From positions 38,023 through 102,022 of the forward strand of contig JBDTWD010000003.1 of NCBI GenBank assembly GCA_040006915.1: DNA of 64,000 nucleotides, in the 5' to 3' direction. The notes below the pieces were generated by a model. It did no database searches and had not been told where the DNA came from. It was given only the letters and a program-made list of their open reading frames with translations. The position numbers were made by a program, and so were the translations under genes. The DNA comes from Candidatus Woesebacteria bacterium (GTDB taxonomy: Bacteria > Patescibacteriota > Microgenomatia > UBA1400 > UBA12028). Below are positions 1 to 41,395 of the stretch, in pieces. Each line of letters opens with the position of its first letter. The first letter of the stretch is position 1.

Positions 1-305
1 CACCGTGTCTCAGTTACCTTGTGGCCGATCACGCTCTCACGTCGGCTACCCGTCGTCGCCTTGGTGGGCTTTTACCCCGCCAACTAGCTGATAGGGCGCA
101 GGCTCCTCTCATAGCGTCTTACGACTTTGATCTTGCGATCACATGCGGTATTAATTGGCCTTTCGGCCAGCTATTCCCCACTACGAGGTAGATTCCTACG
201 CGTTACTCACCCGTCTGCCGCTAAACTTATATTGCTATAAATTTCGCTCGACTTGCATGCTTAAGGCACACCGCCAGCGTTCATCCTGAACCAGGATCAA
301 ATTCT
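1..305 (-). rRNA. rrs: 16S rRNA, 5' ~305 nt (gene continues beyond window start)
   Basis: Reverse complement of 220-305 reads AGAATTTGATCCTGGTTCAGGATGAACGCTGGCGGTGTGCCTAAGCATGCAAGTCGAGCG, the canonical 16S 5' end. Window position 1 is the reverse complement of GGTAACTGAGACACGGTG (~E. coli position 320). Confidence 0.9.
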
Positions 306-607
306 TAGGAAAATTTTCAAAAAATTAACAAAATTAAAAGAATTGAACGGATTTTAACTTGTACACACGAAAAATTTTATTCTCTCGTGGTCAAGCAAAA
401 TCCGTCAAAAAAGACTGTTTTGGCTTACCACGATGAAAACGGTTGGTTTCGTGTTCATTCAAATATAAAGCATTCTTCAATTGTAAAAGAGCAAAAAGAA
501 TATGTTCTAAAGACGAAAAAACCCCAGGTTGCTGGAGTTTTAATTCATGCAAACCTTGAAGGTGATGTCTAGAACATATGGGTATAATACCAACTCCCCA
601 GAGAAAA

Positions 608-5735: not shown

Positions 5736-5746
5736 GAGTCTGTCAA
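5718..5746 (-). promoter_or_regulatory. sigma70-type promoter of the hrcA operon (-35 TTGACA, 17-nt spacer, -10 TATTAT inside the CIRCE loop)
   Basis: Minus-strand reading: TTGACA (5741-5746) + 17 nt + TATTAT (5718-5723). Classic CIRCE-overlapping arrangement. Confidence 0.55.
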
Positions 5747-6210
5747 GTGGAGGAAGATTGGCGTCGTTTCACGAGTTCCCTTGGGGAAAGTTTGCGTGTA
5801 GCGAATACTTTTTCATTGATTCCCAACACCGAACCGACGCCGAATAAGGCAATTGCTCCTCCGGCGACGAGCCAGGTTTCAAACCCGGTCTTCGGGGAGT
5901 GCTTTAGCTTCGCAGAAAGTGAAGCAATTGGTGTGGGGCTTGGGCTTACCTTAGGTGAAGGCGAAACTGTGGGTTTTGGCGTAGTCGTTGGACGAATAGT
6001 CGAGGCTGGGGTAGGTGATGTGGTCCCTGCTGCACATGAACAGGTCGAGGATGAGGGACAACTATTTAAACGACAAACACCAACATAACAGCGATATCCA
6101 GAGCTACAATCTCCATCAACCTCACATTTTTGGTTACACATATTAGTCTGTGCGTAGACAGGGGCAACCGAAAACAAAAGGAAAAGTAGTGTTGTTGCAA
6201 TTTTTTTCAT
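5743..6210 (-). CDS. secreted Cys-rich surface protein: signal peptide, one 8-Cys module, Pro/Thr/Ser linker, SPKTG-like sorting motif + TM + basic tail
   Basis: MKKIATTLLFLLFSVAPVYAQ signal peptide. CNQKCEVDGDCSSGYRCYVGVCRLNSCPSSSTCSC has the same 8-Cys spacing as the repeats at 40.2 kb and 51.7 kb. ...HSPKTG-FETWLVAGGAIALFGVGSVLG-INEK...RKLSPRELVKRRQ. Confidence 0.6.
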   Translation of the reverse strand: MKKIATTLLFLLFSVAPVYAQTNMCNQKCEVDGDCSSGYRCYVGVCRLNSCPSSSTCSCAAGTTSPTPASTIRPTTTPKPTVSPSPKVSPSPTPIASLSAKLKHSPKTGFETWLVAGGAIALFGVGSVLGINEKVFATRKLSPRELVKRRQSSST

Positions 6211-6265
6211 ATTCGGGCGTAGTATACCCGAATAGAAGGCGGTTTACAACTGAAAAAGGGAGGGT

Positions 6266-6559
6266 TTAGTCGATACGCCTACGCTTCTTTCTCACCTCCA
6301 GCCTATTGTCTGCAGGTATAAACATCACCGAATACTCTGATGGCAAGAGGATCGGTTCACGCCCCTTAAGCTGATTTCTCTCCACCACCACAAGGGTACC
6401 AGCTATTCGTATAACAAAATATTCCGTTCCCAATTTGTCTTTTCCTTTAACCACAACACATTCAAACATGTGTACATATTCACCCTTACCATTCACATCT
6501 ATCAGTTGAGAAATTGGTTTTAGTTCGATCAGTTGTTTTTCTTTTGTCTTTAATTCCAT
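6266..6559 (-). CDS. hypothetical protein (97 aa), possibly small beta-barrel
   Basis: Clean ORF, basic C-terminus, no recognised motif. Confidence 0.4.
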   Translation of the reverse strand: MELKTKEKQLIELKPISQLIDVNGKGEYVHMFECVVVKGKDKLGTEYFVIRIAGTLVVVERNQLKGREPILLPSEYSVMFIPADNRLEVRKKRRRID

Positions 6560-6577
6560 ATTCTTTCTAGAAGAGAG

Positions 6578-7639
6578 TTAAATAATAATCCCACCACCAT
6601 AACACGTGTCTTGATGATAGAAAACAGCACTTTGGCCAGATGCCACTCCCTGCTGTGCTTCGCACAGATTGATTTTATTTCCCTTCAGCGTACAGGGAAT
6701 CAATTGCCCTGTATGCCGGATTCTGACCATTAACTTTTGGTCGTCTTCGCCTGATGATGAGCGAATCCAGTGAATGTCTTCAATTTCAAACGTATCTTTA
6801 TATGTCTCTGCACCAAAGCCAACAACCAGTTGGTTTTTCTCCCCATCTTTATGGATGACATAAAATGGCGGAATTGCATGCTTATCGATTCCTTCAATGG
6901 TTTTGACCACAAACGCATCATCAAACCCATGTCTCTGCCCGATGGTATAAAACCATAAGCCTTTGTGTCGTCCAATAACTCTTCCTTTGGTATCAACCAC
7001 ATCACCAGGATTCTCACCTAAACGATCTTTTAAGAAGTTGTGGACGTTGATCTCACCAATAAAACAAATCCCCTGACTATCAGGCTTGGTGGCCGTCAGT
7101 AATTCATATTCTTTCGCCAATTTTCTAACTTCTGGTTTGGTCAAATGCCCGATGGGAAAGAGAACATGTGAGAGTTGCTCTTCACGTAACCGATATAAGA
7201 AATAGGTTTGATCTTTGTGTTCATCAACGCTGCGAACCAGCGCATTATCTATAATCTGTGCATAATGACCGGTTGCCACGGCATCAAACCCTTGCTCCAT
7301 CGCCCAGTCATAAAAAAGCCCAAATTTAATTTCTTTGTTACAAAGCACATCTGGATTTGGAGTCTTTCCAGCTTTATACGTCTCAAAGAAATATTCAACT
7401 ACTTTTTGTCGGTACGCTTCTTTGAAATCCAGTACTTGAAATGGAATACCCAATTTTAAAGCTATCGCCAATGCATCTTTCCGATCTTCTTCCGCTCGGC
7501 AGCCTGGAGCTCGCCAGCATTCCAAAAATACTCCGGTCACGTCGTAACCAGCTTTCTGCAGAAGAACCGCTGAGACTGAGGAGTCTACTCCTCCTGACAT
7601 TCCCAGAGCGATTTTTTTTCTTGTATTATCTTGCGCCAT
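6578..7639 (-). CDS. mnmA: tRNA-specific 2-thiouridylase MnmA. Start at MAQDNTRKKIALGMSGGVDSS; the track ORF extends to 7762.
   Basis: PP-loop SGGVDSS and MnmA-length body with conserved Cys residues. Confidence 0.9.
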   Translation of the reverse strand: MAQDNTRKKIALGMSGGVDSSVSAVLLQKAGYDVTGVFLECWRAPGCRAEEDRKDALAIALKLGIPFQVLDFKEAYRQKVVEYFFETYKAGKTPNPDVLCNKEIKFGLFYDWAMEQGFDAVATGHYAQIIDNALVRSVDEHKDQTYFLYRLREEQLSHVLFPIGHLTKPEVRKLAKEYELLTATKPDSQGICFIGEINVHNFLKDRLGENPGDVVDTKGRVIGRHKGLWFYTIGQRHGFDDAFVVKTIEGIDKHAIPPFYVIHKDGEKNQLVVGFGAETYKDTFEIEDIHWIRSSSGEDDQKLMVRIRHTGQLIPCTLKGNKINLCEAQQGVASGQSAVFYHQDTCYGGGIII

Positions 7640-7696: not shown

Positions 7697-8740
7697 ATGT
7701 TCACTGTAAAACCACTTTTCTTCTCTCGTACTACCCCCACCGGCCCACAGCCATATCAACATTTAGATGCTGCGATGCAGATGGTGATTGATGAGGCGGA
7801 AAAACATGGAATGCACTGGGAATTATTGACAGATAGTGATGTGGTTGCAGTGACGTATAAAGGAAAAACCAATTATTTTCGTAACCGTGCTCCCTCTACA
7901 ACTCACGTTCCCGCCACTAAAATTTGTCAGAATAAAGCCGCAACTAGCGCCTTCTTGCGCAAAGCCGGTGTATGTGTTGTTAAAAGTTTGACTGTGTATT
8001 CTTCCGATTCAAAAGAGTATCTCCAGGCCGTGTGGGATACCCTTGCCAAACCGTTGGTGATTAAACCAGCACAAGGAATGCATGGAGATGCTGTCCATGT
8101 CGGAATTGCTGATCAAGCAGAATATTTTTCACTGATTCAAAGTTATTTTGTTCAACCTCTCTATGGTGGTGGCCTTGTCATCGAAGAAATGTTTTCCGGA
8201 AAAGAATATCGCATTATGGTTACCCAGGAAAAAGTTCTCGCCGTCATTGAGCGAATCCCGGCGTTTGTGACTGGAGACGGAGAACACACTATTCGAGAAT
8301 TAATCAAATTAAAGAATCAATTGCCCATTCGTAATGTCTCCCAAGATATTTATCCTCACATTAAAATTGATGATGACTTACTTGCCACTCTTAAACGACA
8401 AGAAAAAGACATTGAATCTGTTCCTACAAAAGATGAAACAATTCATTTACGTCGGGTTTCAAATGTAATGGCGGGTGGAGAAACGGTGGACCGAACCGAT
8501 GAGATTCATCCTTCGGTTGCTAAAATTGCAATGCAAACCATTCAAGCTATTCCAGGATTAAGTTGGGCGGGGATTGATTTCATGACTACAGATCTTTTCA
8601 GCGAACAAAATGAAAATTCCTACCGAATTATCGAAGTAAACGCAGCTCCAGAGTTTGATATGCATGAGTTGCCAATGCAAGGAAAAGCACGCCCGGTCTC
8701 TTTCGAATTTTTGAAACTTATGTTTCCCGATCTTTCGTAG
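7697..8740 (+). CDS. ATP-grasp domain protein resembling the N-terminal ATP-grasp domain of cyanophycin synthetase (stand-alone, no Mur-ligase domain)
   Basis: KPAQGMHGDAVHV..., EYRIMV..., RIIEVNAAPEFDMHELPMQGKARPV resembles the CphA EVNAAPG..MH motif region as I recall it. Confidence 0.55.
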   Translation: MFTVKPLFFSRTTPTGPQPYQHLDAAMQMVIDEAEKHGMHWELLTDSDVVAVTYKGKTNYFRNRAPSTTHVPATKICQNKAATSAFLRKAGVCVVKSLTVYSSDSKEYLQAVWDTLAKPLVIKPAQGMHGDAVHVGIADQAEYFSLIQSYFVQPLYGGGLVIEEMFSGKEYRIMVTQEKVLAVIERIPAFVTGDGEHTIRELIKLKNQLPIRNVSQDIYPHIKIDDDLLATLKRQEKDIESVPTKDETIHLRRVSNVMAGGETVDRTDEIHPSVAKIAMQTIQAIPGLSWAGIDFMTTDLFSEQNENSYRIIEVNAAPEFDMHELPMQGKARPVSFEFLKLMFPDLS

Positions 8741-9716
8741 CATCTGATATTTTGTCAAAGAAGTTCATTTTCCCAATTTCTAACAAACTCTTTTTGTACC
8801 CTGCCATATTTTCAGTGATAAAAGTGGGAAGGAGTAACGGTTGAACAGTCGACAACGGCTTTAGCATATCAACATCTTCTTGGGCAATTTTACCAATGTA
8901 TAAATCAGTAGGATCAAAATCGCGTTTTCGTAACCACTTCCAAACTTCAATCGCACCGCTAAAATAAATTTGATCTTTCGGAAACGCCCCTGGTTTAGAG
9001 GTATCGACGATTCCACGCTTCACTCGAACGCTAATATCAAAACGTCTCTCCCGATCGGAGATATGATCTTTCAACATCGCATACACTTCACTGAATGAAT
9101 GTGCCTGTGCGTAAAAGACTGCAAGATAGTTAATCGCTTGAAAAACCAATAATTTATTCTCTTTGGGAATTTGAGAATGAAGAACTGCCAATCCTTCTTC
9201 CGTTACAAAATGTGGATGGAGTTTTAATTCCTTGGCTTTTGATCTCCATAACTGTTGACGATCGTTCATCGAACGAATTTGGTGAGTTCCGATTTCGTGA
9301 TACAGCATCCCAAGCAACCCTGACTGGGTATACTCAACGGGCAAACGAATAATTAACGTATTCTTGTACATAGAAGTACGCGCTACAGTGCTGCGAGTAA
9401 ATTGAAGAGTAATGATTCGCGACAAATTTTCATGTTCCAAAAAAGCTACTACAATTTTTTCAACATCTTCTTTCGATAAAAGCGGTTCTTTTTGATCTGT
9501 TTTTTCAAACGCAGGAGACAGTGCATTTTTTTCTGCATAATCTAGAACTTTTTCAGCTAACGATACATATTCAGAGGAAACTCCTCCATATCGTTGCAGC
9601 TCTTCAGGACTCACAGGATCGGTATACGAAAATTGTGGATTGTATAAGGGATCAAAGAAAAACTTTTTCTTCTCCTCTTCCAAATTCGCTGGTAATATCC
9701 GTTGAATAAACGTCAT
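8718..9716 (-). CDS. DUF1704-like protein (QEGLA-motif family) with HExxH, putative Zn-dependent peptidase/amidase
   Basis: HEIGTHQ (HExxH) and FVTEEGLAVLHSQ (QEGLA-like motif). 332 aa. Confidence 0.55.
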   Translation of the reverse strand: MTFIQRILPANLEEEKKKFFFDPLYNPQFSYTDPVSPEELQRYGGVSSEYVSLAEKVLDYAEKNALSPAFEKTDQKEPLLSKEDVEKIVVAFLEHENLSRIITLQFTRSTVARTSMYKNTLIIRLPVEYTQSGLLGMLYHEIGTHQIRSMNDRQQLWRSKAKELKLHPHFVTEEGLAVLHSQIPKENKLLVFQAINYLAVFYAQAHSFSEVYAMLKDHISDRERRFDISVRVKRGIVDTSKPGAFPKDQIYFSGAIEVWKWLRKRDFDPTDLYIGKIAQEDVDMLKPLSTVQPLLLPTFITENMAGYKKSLLEIGKMNFFDKISDATKDRET

Positions 9717-9717
9717 A

Positions 9718-11040
9718 TCATTCTCCGATCAAAAAGCCGCCCATATCTTTTCGTCCAATTTCTACATTATGTTTTAATGCAGTTAGTTTTTTGGTGATCA
9801 CCATTTGAGTAGTAATTACTCGATGCTTTAATTTAAATTTCACTTCTACCACTGGAACTTTCCCTTCCCCTTCTTCTTCTTGCTTCCATAACAAATCAGA
9901 TTCATCAGTCAAGCCTAGTTCTTTGGCTTTTGAAATAGCAATTGCACTGCGGAATCTTCCAGTATTCATCAGCGCTTCTACTTCGTGTGGTTTGTCATTC
10001 TCATCAAAAATCGTAATTACTTCTTTTGGAGCCACGATCGTTCGCTCTCCCTCCAAATCCACTAAAGTGACTGTCTCCGTAAAAAGTGACTGTGCGATCT
10101 TTACTGCATGGGACACGGATCTAGCTTCAATTTCCTCAATTCGCTCAAGTCTGCGCCGTAAGCCCGAACGATTTGCCAATTGAATCGAAAGACCAGGAGC
10201 GCGATTGAGCTCGGCAATCATCGGTCCTTTTTCAGGATGCACAAAAACATCCGCTCCCATATACACAAAACCTGTCGCATTCGCACTACGAACTGCAGTT
10301 TTTAAAACATCTACCCAATACGGGATTTTGATCCCTGCGGTTTTAATGTTCGTATGAGGAAACAGATCAAAAATCTGATTACCGCCACTTACTCCATGTG
10401 TCGTCTCGCCAGTTCCTAAATCAATCCCAAGTGCCACGGCTCCCTGATGCAAATTGGCTCTACCTCCTGACGCTTTGGTCGGAATACGAATCATCGCCAT
10501 CACCGGAATTTTGTTAAACACAATCACGCGAACATCTGGAGTTCCCATTTCAACATACTGTTCAAGGTCAGGATGCACTGGTACTCGTTCCTCAATCAAA
10601 ATAATGGGAAGACTCCCCCAGGTACTATATTCTCCCTCCAAGATATTTCGACCATGTAAGATTAAATCTTCACGAGTAAACGGTTTCTCTTCTAGGTCAA
10701 TCCAAATTGCTTCCCCTTTTTTCTTGCGCTTGATGACCATCACACCCTTTCCTGCACTGCCATTCGCTGGCTTAATCACAAATGATGGGCCGCAAATATT
10801 CCAATCGAATTCTTGGAGTTCTTCCAATGAAGAAATTTTGGCAAACAATTTGGCAACTGTTATTCCATGTTTAGCCAAAAAGTTCTTTGCTCGCAACTTA
10901 CTGGTACCAAATTTCGTTGCATCATGAGAGTTTAATGGCTCATAAAGCATGTTGCGCGCATTCAAACCCAAGATATCAGAGAGTTTTACCATAGAGTATG
11001 TTATTCCTGCTCTTCGGATAGACGACGGAATCGAATCCAT
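9718..11040 (-). CDS. RimK-like ATP-grasp amidoligase (alpha-L-glutamate-ligase-like) with N-terminal extension
   Basis: ATP-grasp body: FVIKPANGSAGKGV, ...ILIEERV..., ...MIAELNRAPGLSIQ. An additional ~100-aa N-terminal domain is present. Confidence 0.7.
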   Translation of the reverse strand: MDSIPSSIRRAGITYSMVKLSDILGLNARNMLYEPLNSHDATKFGTSKLRAKNFLAKHGITVAKLFAKISSLEELQEFDWNICGPSFVIKPANGSAGKGVMVIKRKKKGEAIWIDLEEKPFTREDLILHGRNILEGEYSTWGSLPIILIEERVPVHPDLEQYVEMGTPDVRVIVFNKIPVMAMIRIPTKASGGRANLHQGAVALGIDLGTGETTHGVSGGNQIFDLFPHTNIKTAGIKIPYWVDVLKTAVRSANATGFVYMGADVFVHPEKGPMIAELNRAPGLSIQLANRSGLRRRLERIEEIEARSVSHAVKIAQSLFTETVTLVDLEGERTIVAPKEVITIFDENDKPHEVEALMNTGRFRSAIAISKAKELGLTDESDLLWKQEEEGEGKVPVVEVKFKLKHRVITTQMVITKKLTALKHNVEIGRKDMGGFLIGE

Positions 11041-11924
11041 TCAGTGAATCGCAGGCCAAGATAGCGACCGATGACAAAGTTTAAAAGTCCGATCAATAAG
11101 AACGTCAGTTCAGGATATAAAAGCACAAATGATTGGATTAACTGTGAACGAAGTACTAAGGTACACAGTACCCCTAAAATAAATGTTTCAAACACACGTT
11201 GAAGCGCGACAGTCGAAGAACTCGCGCTAGAGATCTCCAAGAAGTTCTCAGAAAGTAAAATCAGAATTAACAGTGCAAATACGTTTAACACTGAGAGTGA
11301 AAGTAACTGAACATAGGTAGAAAGAACTAAGAGCCCGAACACTCCAAAAGAAACCAACCACAGAATCATAGCTGTACGTGGAAGATAAGGTAATTTAAAT
11401 CCCTGCAATAAACGTCTTCCTATTGTCGCAAACAGTAGAATGGAAAAAAACAAAAAGCTGCCTCTAAACATTCCCATTGATAACAAGGCAACAGCTAGAG
11501 CCGCTGGCGCATACATGGACAGGCCTGACAATCCAATGATGTGACGCGCAAAGGCAATCAAACTTGCAACCAACGGGAAGATCAAGATAAAGGCAACAGT
11601 CGTCGCGCTCACCCCATTATCCACAGCGCGTCGCACTGCGTATTGGAGAAAGTTTGTTGGACCAAAATTTCCCAGTTTTTCTGTCTGTAAAATACTTTCC
11701 AAGCGATCGGCAGTTTGCCCACTCGCCTGTGTAATATTCCCTTCGTTGACTAACGGTCGTGATTCTTTAAAAATGACACCGCTTTCTGAGGCACTACTAC
11801 TCGCTTCCGATGATTCAGTTGCGACAGCGTCAGTTGGAAAAAATCGAGTATCTTGGGCAAAGACAGTTGATCGTGAAACTGAAAGGAAGAAAACGAATAC
11901 ACTGAGGGCAAAGATTTTTTTCAT
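11001..11924 (-). CDS. signal peptide + ~90-aa periplasmic region + 7-TM membrane protein (7TM-transglutaminase-associated type). Likely start MKKIFALSV at 11924.
   Basis: Seven hydrophobic helices counted in the C-terminal 230 aa. N-terminal cleavable signal (VFAQD). Confidence 0.55.
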   Translation of the reverse strand: MKKIFALSVFVFFLSVSRSTVFAQDTRFFPTDAVATESSEASSSASESGVIFKESRPLVNEGNITQASGQTADRLESILQTEKLGNFGPTNFLQYAVRRAVDNGVSATTVAFILIFPLVASLIAFARHIIGLSGLSMYAPAALAVALLSMGMFRGSFLFFSILLFATIGRRLLQGFKLPYLPRTAMILWLVSFGVFGLLVLSTYVQLLSLSVLNVFALLILILLSENFLEISSASSSTVALQRVFETFILGVLCTLVLRSQLIQSFVLLYPELTFLLIGLLNFVIGRYLGLRFTEWIRFRRLSEEQE

Positions 11925-12006
11925 GTCTATAGTATAGTACATCCGGCAACGAAAAGCCCCCCGATGTATCACCGAGGGGCTTCCATTTTTCAAAAACTAT
12001 TTTCCC

Positions 12007-12756
12007 TTATTTCAAGGCTTCGTCTAAGGCCTTTTGGAATTCACTGTATGGTTGCGCTCCCACGAGGAGTTTTCCATTGATAATGAACGTTGGGGTTCCA
12101 CTAGCGCCTACTTTTGCTGCCAAAGCATTATCATCGTCAATCTTTTGTTTAAACTTGCCATCGGCAATACACTTCTTGAATTGATCGACATTAATACCGA
12201 CATCTTTGGCATAGCCTTCAAACTTGGCTTTAGGATCAGCTTCATTTACCCAAGCATCTTGGTTGCCAAACAACTTGTCATGCATTTCAAAATACTTCTT
12301 TTGGTCTCCTGCACATTCAGCAGCTTCTGCACCAATGTGAGCGTTCGGGTGGAATGGAAGAGGAAGATTTTGTACAGCATAACTAATCTTATTGGTATCA
12401 ATATAATCCTTCTTCAGCTGACCATATGTTTGGGTAAAGTACTGTCCACAGAATGGACATTGAAAGTCAGTAAATTCAACGACTGCAACTTTCGCACTTT
12501 TGTTCCCTTCAATATGGACTGAATTTCCAGTCACTTCTTTCCACTGATCATCAGTTAATTGAGTTACAGGTTCAGCAGGAGCTGCGGCAGGAGCGGCTGC
12601 TGTTGGTGCCGTGGCTGCACTTCCACCTAATGACATTCCTCCAGCTTTCCACATCATGACAAACACCAGTGCGATCGCAGCTAGTGATACCGCAGAGACG
12701 GCACGAGTGACAACTTCAACTACTGTTGCCCACTCTTCAAATAATCGCTTATCCAT
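12007..12756 (-). CDS. membrane-anchored DsbA-like thiol:disulfide oxidoreductase
   Basis: N-terminal TM, Ala/Pro linker, thioredoxin fold with CPFC active site (FTDFQCPFCGQYF). Confidence 0.75.
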   Translation of the reverse strand: MDKRLFEEWATVVEVVTRAVSAVSLAAIALVFVMMWKAGGMSLGGSAATAPTAAAPAAAPAEPVTQLTDDQWKEVTGNSVHIEGNKSAKVAVVEFTDFQCPFCGQYFTQTYGQLKKDYIDTNKISYAVQNLPLPFHPNAHIGAEAAECAGDQKKYFEMHDKLFGNQDAWVNEADPKAKFEGYAKDVGINVDQFKKCIADGKFKQKIDDDNALAAKVGASGTPTFIINGKLLVGAQPYSEFQKALDEALK

Positions 12757-12825
12757 ATGGAAACTCCTACTATATTTATATATACGTACTCAAGATCCTT
12801 ACCGTACCAAAGTAAAAGGGACGCG

Positions 12826-13758
12826 TCAAGACTCAAGCCACCATTGTGCATCAAGCGCTGCCATACATCCAAGTCCCGCCGCTGTTATCGCTTGCTTATA
12901 GCGATAATCTACACAGTCTCCGGCAGCAAACACCCCTTCTACCGAAGTCATGGTTGGATAGTTAGTCAGACCCTGACGCACTGTAATAAATTTTTTCTCA
13001 TCCAGCTGAATTTGAGCTGAGAAAATTTCTGTTGAAGGCTTATGTCCAATCGCAACAAATACTCCATCGGCTGGCAATTCTTTTATTTCGTGCGTGTTCA
13101 CATCTTCAATTACCAGAGTTTCAACTTTCGCTTCGCCTTTAATTTCTTTGGGAACTGCATTCCAAATCACTGAGACTTTCGGATTTGCTAATACTCTATC
13201 CTGCATGATTTTACTGGCTTTAAAGCTATCTCTTCGATGAACAAGCGTGACAGATTTTGCAAATTTGGTTAGTGCTAACGTATCTTCCATTGCTGCATCT
13301 CCTCCACCAATCACGTAGGTATTTTTTTCTTTAAAGAATGCGGCATCACAGACGGCACAACTACTCACTCCCCGCCCAACCAGTTTCATTTCACCAGGGA
13401 TACCAAGCCACACATTTTCAGCTCCGGTTGAGATGAGTATCGCTTTAGCTTGAAACTCTTCTTCTCCACTCCATACTTTAAATGGACGGGCTGAAAAATC
13501 GACTTTAGTGATATTTTTATCAATGATCTGCGTTCCAAAATTCTTAGCTTGATCCCGCATATTCTGCATAAGGAGAGGACCATCCACTCCTTGTGGAAAT
13601 CCTGGATAGTTTTCAATCACTGTGGTAAGCATTAATTGTCCACCAGCTTTTTCTCCAGCAAAAAGCAGAGGAGCTAAATTTGCCCGTGCTAAATATGTAG
13701 CCGCAGTCCAACCACTTGGTCCTGAGCCAATGATAATAACGTTATGGATTTCATTCAT
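12826..13758 (-). CDS. trxB: thioredoxin reductase
   Basis: IIGSGPSGWTAA (FAD), CAVCD redox-active disulfide, GGGDAAME (NADPH), 310 aa. Confidence 0.9.
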   Translation of the reverse strand: MNEIHNVIIIGSGPSGWTAATYLARANLAPLLFAGEKAGGQLMLTTVIENYPGFPQGVDGPLLMQNMRDQAKNFGTQIIDKNITKVDFSARPFKVWSGEEEFQAKAILISTGAENVWLGIPGEMKLVGRGVSSCAVCDAAFFKEKNTYVIGGGDAAMEDTLALTKFAKSVTLVHRRDSFKASKIMQDRVLANPKVSVIWNAVPKEIKGEAKVETLVIEDVNTHEIKELPADGVFVAIGHKPSTEIFSAQIQLDEKKFITVRQGLTNYPTMTSVEGVFAAGDCVDYRYKQAITAAGLGCMAALDAQWWLES

Positions 13759-14327
13759 ATGTTTTTTGTCTCCTCTATCATCTGATCTATTTTCCCGGAT
13801 TCTAAAAGTGTTTGAATCAATGGTAATAATCTGACCGCATTGGGTGGCATTAAGATCGAGCCGTTTTCTACGCTGGTGATCAAATCAACAATATCAAAGA
13901 ATCTCACTTCTTGTGCTTCAACAGTATTGAATCCAGGAAAAGGCCCTTCGTGCAGACCATAGAACATTGCCCAAAACTCGGACTCATGCACTCCTGGTTG
14001 GAATATTTTCATCCAGTGGGTAAGAGGGACATTCACTCCTAATTCTTCACTGAGTTCACGAACCGCAGTTTTCTCATACGAATCGCCGCTGTTAACATGA
14101 CCTCCCACAGAAAATACCCAGTACCCAGGAAACATATCTTTTGTCATGCTCCGCTTTTGCATCAAAAGATGTTTTTTTTTGTTAAAGATATAGACACCGG
14201 CAGCACGATGAATGAGTTTGGGATCGCTATGTACTTGTTTGCGAGTGGCTGTTCCAAGGACTTCGTCCTCCTCGTTCACAACATCATAGACTTCTTCCTG
14301 ATTATCAGTGGTATTGGGATTGTACAT
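13755..14327 (-). CDS. NUDIX hydrolase
   Basis: Nudix box GGHVNSGDSYEKTAVRELSEELGV. Confidence 0.75.
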   Translation of the reverse strand: MYNPNTTDNQEEVYDVVNEEDEVLGTATRKQVHSDPKLIHRAAGVYIFNKKKHLLMQKRSMTKDMFPGYWVFSVGGHVNSGDSYEKTAVRELSEELGVNVPLTHWMKIFQPGVHESEFWAMFYGLHEGPFPGFNTVEAQEVRFFDIVDLITSVENGSILMPPNAVRLLPLIQTLLESGKIDQMIEETKNI

Positions 14328-14334
14328 ACGACAA

Positions 14335-14673
14335 TTATGCCGCCATTACTTTAGTGATCATTTCACGATATTTCTCTTCTCCACCAAATCCAATTTGACG
14401 ATCTGCTTCGACCATTTCACCTTTCTCATTTTTCTTGAAAGCAACCACAGTCGGAATACTCATAATTCCATAGTTACCGGCAATGTTTGTGGCATCCGTA
14501 TCAACTTTAACGATTTTCACCTTCCCAGCAAATTCGTCTGACAATTTATCGATAATTGGAGCAGCCATCTTGCATGGTCCACACCATTCGGCGTAGAAGT
14601 CCACAATCACTGGAGTCTCTGATTTTAAAACCTGATCTGTAAATTGATCATCGGTTAAGTGTGCTGCTGCCAT
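14335..14673 (-). CDS. trxA: thioredoxin
   Basis: WCGPCK active site, 112 aa. Confidence 0.9.
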   Translation of the reverse strand: MAAAHLTDDQFTDQVLKSETPVIVDFYAEWCGPCKMAAPIIDKLSDEFAGKVKIVKVDTDATNIAGNYGIMSIPTVVAFKKNEKGEMVEADRQIGFGGEEKYREMITKVMAA

Positions 14674-14682
14674 ACGGTCCTT

Positions 14683-14934
14683 TCAAGTCATTTCGACTAA
14701 TGTTTTTAATATACGATCAAAATCCTCAGGGGTTCTACATCTCGCACAACGGCTGGCTTCATCGGCGAGTAAATCCTTGGCTACACCAGAGAGTGCGCTA
14801 CGGGATGCCGCCACTTGCTGCACAATATCCAAACAAGAACGCTCTTCTTCATACATAGCAAGGACTCCATTAAGTTGTCCAATAATCTTCTTTAATTTAA
14901 GCGCTACCGCGTCTTTTCCAAGGTCAACAGCCAT
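14683..14934 (-). CDS. CsoR/RcnR/FrmR-family (DUF156) metal/thiol-sensing transcriptional repressor
   Basis: 83-aa all-helical protein with Cys at ~33 (RSCLD) and a C-A-R-C pair at ~63-66 in the W-X-Y-Z sensing positions (Cys where CsoR has His). Confidence 0.6.
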   Translation of the reverse strand: MAVDLGKDAVALKLKKIIGQLNGVLAMYEEERSCLDIVQQVAASRSALSGVAKDLLADEASRCARCRTPEDFDRILKTLVEMT

Positions 14935-41115: not shown

Positions 41116-41189
41116 GGGCGTGTGGCGCAATCGGTTAGCGCAGGAAGCTTATACCTTCAAGGTTCCTGGTTCGAGTCCAGGCACGCCCA
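41116..41189 (+). tRNA. tRNA, anticodon loop CUUAUAC -> anticodon UAU (Ile, AUA-reading) by hand folding
   Basis: Acceptor GGGCGTG/CACGCCC, D-arm GCGC-AATCGGTTA-GCGC, anticodon arm GGAAG-CTTATAC-CTTCA (27-43 mismatch), variable AGGTT, T-arm CCTGG-TTCGAGT-CCAGG, discriminator A. CCA not encoded. Confidence 0.75.
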
Positions 41190-41395
41190 CAATCGTTGAA
41201 TAGGTTCATAAATTATGTGTGCTATGCCAGTTCTATCGAATGCGTGATACCATTTATGTAGTAGAAAAATGCATATATATGATTTCTTCTGTTCTCTGCC
41301 TACTTCTCATCAAACTTTAAGGCTTTTATGATATATATGTCTCGCGGTGATTCGACGTATAAACTGGGTGTACAATACACAAGTGAAAAGCAAAT

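Follow-up and report, generated by a model that had tools for sequence, protein, structure and literature searches.

A conserved module of a seven-transmembrane protein, an ATP-grasp ligase and a MATCAP-family peptidase in Patescibacteria, with a candidate role in C-terminal tail glutamylation

Genes and proteins of the locus

The 64,000-nucleotide stretch of a Candidatus Woesebacteria genome analysed here (contig JBDTWD010000003.1, positions 38,023 to 102,022; the window) contains four genes, A to D, which encode two ATP-grasp enzymes, a peptidase and a seven-transmembrane (7TM) protein. Three of them, D, C and B, form a conserved unit, which may reversibly glutamylate the C-terminus of protein D. 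A check of the open reading frames (ORFs) of the window found all four genes where the first-pass annotation of the sequence had placed them:

7697-8740, plus strand: gene A, 347 aa, stand-alone ATP-grasp of the CphA1 G-domain / GshAB C-terminal type
8718-9716, minus strand: gene B, 332 aa, MATCAP-family zinc carboxypeptidase (predicted)
9718-10992, minus strand: gene C, 424 aa from the Met common to its homologues; a longer ORF extends to 11040
11001-11924, minus strand: gene D, 307 aa from the annotated ATG at 11924; a longer ORF extends to 11993

The genes are tightly packed or overlapping, as had been described: 8 nt lie between the stop of D and the start of C, 1 nt lies between the stop of C and the start of B, and B and A, which lie tail-to-tail, share 23 nt at their 3' ends. 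Gene A had been called divergent. It is convergent with B and divergent only from mnmA, which is located downstream of A.

The rloABC system of Pseudomonas aeruginosa consists of RloA, a secreted retropepsin; RloB, a 7TM protein whose transglutaminase domain is inactive; and RloC, an ATP-grasp enzyme (Lormand et al. 2025, PMC12239564). Protein D contains the membrane module of RloB. Its Sec-type signal peptide (aa 1-24) is followed by a short ectodomain, seven transmembrane (TM) helices and a C-terminal helix that leads into the tail. The match to 7TM_transglut (PF14402) has an E-value of 9.5e-16, a signal peptide was found and a transglutaminase domain was not detected, which agrees with the earlier description of a signal-peptide 7TM protein lacking the transglutaminase ectodomain. 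Only the 7TM half of the NCBIfam RloB model is matched (NF052267 positions 296-505 of 508). The N-terminal 134 aa of D have no Pfam match and are mostly disordered in the AlphaFold2 (AF2) model. The 307-aa product is 100% identical to an NCBI protein from a Candidatus Woesebacteria metagenome-assembled genome (MAG), so that the origin of the DNA from the Candidate Phyla Radiation (CPR), proposed from the sequence, is correct. An exact look-up of the protein in the contig index gave no match. An N-out, C-in topology of D, in which the tail ...RFRRLSEEQE would face the cytoplasm, is implied by its signal peptide, by the seven helices counted in the AF2 model and by segments rich in Arg/Lys that follow TM1, TM3 and TM7. 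The elements of the D terminus are:

11004-11075, minus strand: juxtamembrane helix and acidic C-terminal tail of D (VIGRYLGLRFTEWIRFRRLSEEQE), proposed substrate or docking element
11004-11018, minus strand: last five codons of D, SEEQE
D-tail peptide, candidate substrate sequence: EWIRFRRLSEEQE

Protein C is formed of a ligase domain and a fused second domain:

10078-10992, minus strand: ATP-grasp domain of C (aa 1-305), RloC-type, "alpha-L-glutamate ligase-like"
9721-10044, minus strand: C-terminal pseudo-retropepsin of C (aa 317-424), RimB/RloA-like fold (PF05618 type)
9955-9966, minus strand: NTGR motif of C, in place of the catalytic DTGA
9718-9720, minus strand: stop codon of C

The ligase domain matches ATPgrasp_ST (3e-53, 181 bits, cut-off 31) and TIGR02291 (2.2e-66, 224 bits, under the NCBI equivalog cut-off of 314). 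The score against the RimK family TIGR00768 is 52 bits, under the cut-off of 143, which makes C a relative of RimK outside the family threshold. The ATP-grasp residues K74, E134/E135, D248, E261 and N263 are invariant among 24 homologues. The first-pass annotation was thus right in calling C a RimK-like ATP-grasp protein with an extra domain, and wrong in putting this domain at the N-terminus, since it occupies aa 317-424. RLAN-RimK-like ligases are said, following Iyer and Aravind, to be linked to transglutaminase-7TM proteins. The RLAN domain (PF14401) gave no match in C at E <= 0.1, and the ATP-grasp begins at approximately residue 15-30 of the longer ORF.

The C-terminal domain of C is conserved in the homologues, with the motif AL-NTGR-RS...ELGRKDL-GFLVG. 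It was aligned by hhalign to a DTGA-type profile composed of the fused domains of distant relatives, three stand-alone proteins, and the RloA proteins of Legionella and Aeromonas (probability 99.2%, E 1.2e-19, 103 columns). In the alignment, N343 of C pairs with the catalytic Asp and R346 with the Ala of DTGA. Comparison with single RloA sequences is weak (E 0.03), and the assignment is decisive only against the profile that includes the DTGA-type fused domains. RloA with the mutation D48N is inactive, and RloA and RimB bind and cleave polyglutamate (polyGlu) in a basic groove (PMC12239564). By analogy, the domain of C is most simply read as a protease fold turned into a non-cutting binder of acidic peptides.

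Protein B matches the Pfam family MATCAP (PF08014, formerly DUF1704; 1.5e-22, 80.6 bits, cut-off 27) and the "QEGLA" family TIGR02421 (2e-21), in line with its description as a 332-aa DUF1704-like protein with HEIGTH and EEGLA motifs:

9282-9299, minus strand: HEIGTH of B (aa 140-145)
9186-9200, minus strand: EEGLA of B (aa 173-177)

Structures of the catalytic domain of human MATCAP (KIAA0895L; 7z5g/7z6s) align with B over residues 6-322 (E 6e-43), and HEIGTH and TEEGLA are identical in the two proteins. In blastp comparisons B has 32% identity to the human MATCAP domain over 322 aa (159 bits), as against 24-28% identity and 58-66 bits for the QEGLA proteins of Vibrio and Aminobacter, and 47 bits for the MATCAP-like protein of the DTGA-type loci described below. 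B is a bona fide member of the MATCAP family by sequence and motifs. MATCAP/TMCP enzymes cleave Tyr and Glu from the C-terminal ends of tubulin tails and make polyGlu chains shorter (PMC10499314), and by analogy B is predicted to act as a carboxypeptidase on acidic tails. The profile searches that the first-pass annotation had proposed thus returned the ATP-grasp, DUF1704/MATCAP and 7TM families, and gave no match to RLAN.

An exhaustive HMMER search of 1.84 billion representatives identified 1,606 members of the family of B. Representatives of vertebrate MATCAP1 and MATCAP2 rank within approximately the top 65, with E-values near 1e-40, and long metagenome matches adjoin genes of eukaryotic type, among them those for EF-hand proteins and protein kinases. 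B and its CPR orthologues (P0190-P0339) share ~32-36% identity with vertebrate and protist MATCAP1/2, to which they are closer than to proteobacterial QEGLA. In a neighbour-joining tree calculated without support values, the eukaryote-type clade is positioned beside or within the short CPR-type clade, and proteobacterial QEGLA proteins are outside. This arrangement hints at a transfer of the MATCAP gene between eukaryotic and CPR lineages, in one direction or the other.

Conservation of the D-C-B unit and of the C-terminus of D

One genome per species was scanned with a profile of C, which gave 80 loci (group 1) with 46-79% identity in C, and the neighbouring genes were called by tblastn with the proteins of the window. 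Almost all of the loci have labels of the Patescibacteria/Microgenomates type or evidently mislabelled MAG titles. Many MAG records among L001-L080 are titled "uncultured Pseudomonadales bacterium", one TM6 and one Vitreimonas, and these labels are probably unreliable. In each of the 78 loci whose contig extends far enough, D is the next gene upstream of C, and B is the next gene downstream of C in 77 of the 80. The three genes adjoin on one strand in 75 of the 78 loci in which all three slots are readable. The conserved unit is therefore D-C-B, and the neighbourhood check envisaged at the outset rules out a chance juxtaposition of these genes. Nearly all of the 77 B orthologues contain the HExxxH-type and EEG(L/I)A motifs.

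Gene A is outside the conserved unit. A-like genes occur in 23 of the 80 loci, where they number one to three, have either orientation and are 0 to 5 kb distant, and in 57 of the 80 D-C-B is kept without A. The four-gene cluster of the first-pass annotation is hence reduced to a three-gene core, to which A is an optional, recurrent accessory. The A-like genes divide into at least three subfamilies in a neighbour-joining tree: A1, which directly follows B; A2, the type present in the window, found near the core in 14 of the 80 loci; and A3, a smaller group. In 15 loci an A-like ligase gene adjoins the core on the same strand, and a co-directional position within 0-42 nt of B is frequent. Their frequency near D-C-B is far above the few percent roughly estimated for a randomly placed single-copy gene.

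The cyanophycin-synthetase-like character that had been assigned to A was confirmed as a partial match. A aligns with TIGR02068 (cyanophycin synthetase) at profile positions 159-473 of 862 (1.8e-70, 238 bits, cut-off 850), with the C-terminal ATP-grasp region of GshAB (2.3e-57, 195 bits, cut-off 425), and with CphA1 structures over the whole G domain (CphA1 residues 165-481; 5.5e-48). The motif that had been noted in it is present:

8633-8650, plus strand: EVNAAP motif of A

These strong matches, and the position of A on the strand opposite to D-C-B, would fit a cyanophycin-like or glutathione-like pathway for a small molecule or storage polymer around A, with the other genes as chance neighbours. 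However, the 347 aa of A hold a single G-type domain without the N and M domains of CphA1, and both family scores are under their cut-offs. A was therefore rejected as a cyanophycin synthetase. The neighbourhood data, with D-C-B conserved where A is absent and A-like genes often co-directional and close to B, largely refute the pathway as well, and it is essentially excluded.

The C-terminus of D, together with the closeness of B to eukaryotic MATCAP, had been missed by the first-pass annotation, and it is the best substrate candidate of the locus. No motif of the family is more strongly conserved than GLR..E..RF, which lies in the last ~20 residues of D, is invariant and is also present in RloB. 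Beyond it, D ends in Glu in 70 of the 78 orthologues and in EE, EEE or EEEE in 61 of the 78, as in ...DSEE, ...DPEE, ...ETEE, ...IIEEEE and ...NSQEEEE. The tails of D of the window and of its nearest relatives end in (S/T)(E/D)EQE. The ribosomal protein S6 of Escherichia coli, the substrate of RimK, ends in ...DSEE. Among the other ORFs of these loci that are 150 aa or longer, 739 in number, just 4 have an EE ending. The terminal Glu run is kept despite the variable linker that precedes it, even where the tail contains a 15-aa insertion (L071-L080). EE tails are found on both deep branches of the group in the tree of C, and the pattern of Glu-terminated D tails recurs in an independent set of proteins.

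It is improbable that C and B act on a protein encoded elsewhere, such as S6 or another Glu-terminated protein, with D as a membrane regulator or sensor. RpsF, the known substrate of RimK, is not encoded beside rimK, and the juxtamembrane GLR..E..RF of D, being common to RloB, could simply recruit the ligase. On the other side, D is the only conserved Glu-terminated protein in the loci. The gene rpsF was looked for in the window and in all loci and was not found.

The catalytic Asp of the retropepsin domain is replaced by N or S in 74 of the 80 group-1 loci. The motif is NTGR in 60, NTSR, NTAR or NTQR in 13, STSR in 1, DTKR in 6, and DTGA in none. Three group-1 loci that lack MATCAP carry between C and the A-like gene a stand-alone DTGA retropepsin of 125-143 aa:

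L031 9286-9717: stand-alone DTGA retropepsin
L068 9287-9691: stand-alone DTGA retropepsin
L069 9282-9659: stand-alone DTGA retropepsin

The D tails of these three loci are not EE. The change looks like the replacement of one peptidase by a non-homologous one, and the presence of a DTGA retropepsin in the slot of B indicates that B fills a RimB-like role. The tail also co-varies with the accessory ligases, since loci in which A1 directly follows B have mostly non-EE D tails (TT, TN, ES, NK, KK and IE; Fisher p 2e-7).

A metagenome scan seeded with two distant fused ligases yielded 80 further loci (group 2) with the opposite combination. DTGA is kept in every readable retropepsin domain (77 of the 80), none of the ~75 readable D tails ends in EE, and a MATCAP-like gene, of a distant type, is present in only ~35 loci. 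The tails of group 2 end in DLEK, VVID, YGSE, KHGSK, RHAGK and similar sequences. Loci L087-L166 have clade-specific conserved 7TM C-termini, for example ...(K/R)H(G/A)(S/G/N)K, ...VVID and ...YGSE. The extreme C-terminus of the 7TM protein seems to matter in the DTGA-type relatives too, in a different manner.

The main rival to a modification of the tail of D is a model like that considered for RloBC, in which C, with or without A, polymerises free Glu or a short peptide in the cytoplasm, D exports or anchors the product, and B degrades or sizes it. The EE tail would then be a docking site, or a mimic of the primer, for the inactive domain of C. RimK also makes free poly-alpha-Glu, and the authors of the rloABC study consider free polyGlu a possible substrate of RloA (PMC12239564). 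The proteobacterial RloB proteins and the DTGA-type relatives keep the D-C pairing without EE tails, which argues for a family-wide function that is independent of the tail. The conservation and co-variation of the tail in group 1 point instead to D as the substrate, and synthesis of a free peptide by the module of the window appears unlikely, if less so than the two alternatives treated above.

Proposed editing of the tail and comparison with known systems

Reversible C-terminal (poly)glutamylation of the cytoplasmic tail of D by the D-C-B module, with A as an optional extra ligase, is given a probability of about 50%. The chemistry of the ligases and the peptidase is taken from the characterised relatives RimK, RloA/RimB, MATCAP/TMCP and the G domain of CphA1, and the assignment of the D tail as the substrate from its conservation and co-variation. 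The first-pass annotation had suggested that the cluster might tag and detag a protein, and the same general reading is favoured here. Its alternative, a product on the cell surface, is not favoured. Neither a signal peptide nor a hydrophobic N-terminus is visible by eye in B, C or A (no predictor was applied), and a cytoplasmic location is predicted for the conserved acidic tail of D.

The proposed mechanism begins with D in the membrane in an N-out, C-in orientation and its ...RFRRLSEEQE tail in the cytoplasm. RimK adds Glu to the EE end of S6 (PMC12239564). Like RimK on the ...DSEE terminus of S6, the ATP-grasp domain of C would activate the terminal carboxylate of the tail and add L-glutamate. 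The RimB/RloA-like domain of C, inactive through the change of DTGA to NTGR, may bind the acidic tail and thereby tether the ligase to D or gauge the length of the tail. B would trim C-terminal residues singly, as MATCAP/TMCP enzymes do on tubulin tails (Tyr, Glu and polyGlu), and undo the modification. Characterised members of the family of A (the CphA1 G domain and GshB-type enzymes) extend the C-terminal carboxylate of a peptide by one residue, and A may add a different residue. The length or charge of the tail would tune the membrane function of D, which, by analogy to the rloBC phenotypes, may be related to envelope or osmotic homeostasis.

Several observations weigh against this assignment. 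RloB ends in ...LAKARS in Legionella and in ...GATPGKDK in Aeromonas, both non-acidic, and an acidic tail as a general trait of the RloB family was rejected for this reason. As neither the proteobacterial RloB proteins nor the DTGA-type relatives have acidic termini, the D tail is not a universal substrate of RloC-type ligases. D of the window itself ends in EEQE, with one terminal Glu only, and the EE tail could be merely a docking motif. The contrast between NTGR and DTGA is essentially one phylogenetic split. Similarly, the non-EE loci with A1 belong essentially to one clade and possibly reflect one or two evolutionary events, so that the Fisher p of 2e-7 overstates their independence. The C-in topology of D was derived from the signal peptide, the AF2 helix count and the charge distribution.

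The editing of the D tail would be a cytoplasmic variant of the RloBC and RimK/RimB systems that parallels the editing of tubulin tails. Like rloABC, the window has adjoining genes for a RloC-type ligase and for a membrane protein with the RloB 7TM module and the GxRxxExxRF cytoplasmic motif, and it has a domain with the RimB/RloA fold. In contrast to RloB, which has an inactive periplasmic transglutaminase domain, D has none, and it ends in Glu, which the RloB proteins of Legionella and Aeromonas do not. The retropepsin of the window is fused to the cytoplasmic ligase and has Asn for the catalytic Asp, whereas RloA is separate, secreted and active. The window system adds a MATCAP-type metallocarboxypeptidase, and it belongs to Patescibacteria, whereas rloABC is found in Gammaproteobacteria. 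The lack of the transglutaminase domain and of a secreted active RloA means that the locus is not a strict member of the rloABC type. An unannotated RloC-like ATP-grasp stretch with 32% identity (E 5e-35) was found at ~6001-6819 of a plasmid of Halobacterium sp. DL1 (CP007061.1; L083), and the family thus reaches Archaea.

The locus resembles the RimK-RimB-RpsF system in that an ATP-grasp of the alpha-L-glutamate-ligase-like type is combined with a RimB-fold partner, all parts are cytoplasmic, and the encoded terminus of the candidate substrate, ...(D/S)EE in D, is like that of S6. The locus differs in that C is not a RimK equivalog, that the RimB-like domain is inactive and joined covalently to the ligase, that a zinc carboxypeptidase is proposed for the removal step, and that the operon itself encodes the candidate substrate, a membrane protein. 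With C under the RimK threshold and the protease domain inactive, the locus is not a RimK/RimB system.

Tubulin tail editing, in which TTL/TTLL ligases are opposed by MATCAP/TMCP and CCP peptidases, is likewise based on ATP-grasp ligases paired with a peptidase, and the candidate target is again a Glu-rich extreme C-terminus. B is homologous to the MATCAP catalytic domain over its full length, but it lacks the microtubule-binding extension and the N-terminal extension of the eukaryotic proteins. The ligases of the window are RimK/RloC-like and CphA-G-like and not of the TTL family. The window system has no tubulin (no search aimed at a tubulin gene was made), and the candidate substrate of its predicted activity is a 7TM protein.

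The proteobacterial QEGLA proteins (TIGR02421) have PF08014 in common with B and are linked to ATP-grasp or amidohydrolase genes. In contrast to B, with its 332 aa, they are ~620-660 aa long owing to a long N-terminal extension, and they have neither 7TM nor RloC neighbours in the two loci that were inspected. On an Aminobacter plasmid (L168, 3163-6907) a 622-aa QEGLA protein is encoded between an N-formylglutamate amidohydrolase and an ATP-grasp of the glutathione-synthetase type, a context that speaks independently for MATCAP-family peptidases and ATP-grasp ligases being paired in general. Compared with CphA1 and GshAB, the enzymes of which extend the C-terminal carboxylate of a peptide, A aligns over the whole G domain but consists of the ATP-grasp module alone, without the N domain, the Mur-ligase-like M domain or the GshA domain.

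A wider and more tentative proposal, for which the odds are about one in three, is that of a patescibacterial "tail code". The cytoplasmic Glu tail of the 7TM protein would be reversibly polyglutamylated and, in some lineages, capped by further ligases. The ligase with its inactive-protease reader would be the writer and the MATCAP orthologue the eraser, and the module would be the source of eukaryotic MATCAP/TMCP.

Genomic surroundings and implications

The module is preceded on the same strand by a redox cluster at 12007-14934, which encodes a CsoR-like repressor, a thioredoxin, a NUDIX protein, TrxB and a membrane-anchored DsbA-like protein. The region between this cluster and D is:

11925-12006, minus strand: intergenic region dsbA-D, with a GC-rich hairpin and then a T run (GCCCCTCGGTGATACATCGGGGGGCTTTTCG), as seen in the sequence itself

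The hairpin and T run are absent from the list of the scanner, and their assignment is tentative; they suggest, equally tentatively, a separate promoter for D-C-B. Both the promoter scan and the terminator scan gave results at background or close to it, and neither was used. The membrane-anchored DsbA/Thioredoxin_4 gene (12007-12756 in the window) is positioned directly upstream of the module in 10 group-1 loci (L001-L007, L014, L016 and L019) and in 21 group-2 loci (among L084 and L087-L125), the ligases of the two groups having only ~38% identity.

Three further features of the window were recorded:

1-312, minus strand: 5' end of a bacterial 16S rRNA gene, which continues beyond the window at its start (Rfam SSU_rRNA_bacteria, 266 bits)
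5743-6210, minus strand: 155-aa ORF; signal peptide, Cys-rich segment, linker rich in Pro/Thr/Ser, hydrophobic anchor at the C-terminus; no Pfam match
41116-41190, plus strand: tRNA-Ile with the anticodon TAT (UAU), the only tRNA in the 64 kb

The 155-aa ORF may encode a small surface protein. A UAU tRNA-Ile is uncommon in bacteria for the reading of AUA, the usual decoder of which is the lysidine-modified CAU tRNA.

The first-pass annotation had stated that systems of this kind have no known product. A relative, rloABC, has been studied genetically and biochemically in 2025, and the in vivo product is still open (PMC12239564). The same work acknowledges as an open question which substrate RloC-type ligases and RloA/RimB-type proteases have in vivo (PMC12239564). 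No description of the D-C-B variant was found in the literature searched, nor relevant work on DUF1704, on prokaryotic KIAA0895L, or on RimK and the tails of membrane proteins.

The D-C-B variant points to one specific and testable substrate candidate, the C-terminal tail of the partner 7TM protein. If the proposal is true, reversible C-terminal polyglutamylation in bacteria would extend beyond the ribosomal protein S6, for the first time to a membrane protein. The retropepsin domain of C, with its Asp-to-Asn change, is an example of a pseudo-enzyme that looks like a protease made into a binding module. Through B, the family of tubulin detyrosinases and deglutamylases gains a prokaryotic operon context, in which a Glu tail is the candidate substrate, and the closeness of B to MATCAP1/2 bears on the origin of the enzymes of the tubulin code. 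CPR genomes have few genes to spare, and the wide occurrence of D-C-B among them makes it probable that the module serves an important envelope or physiological function.

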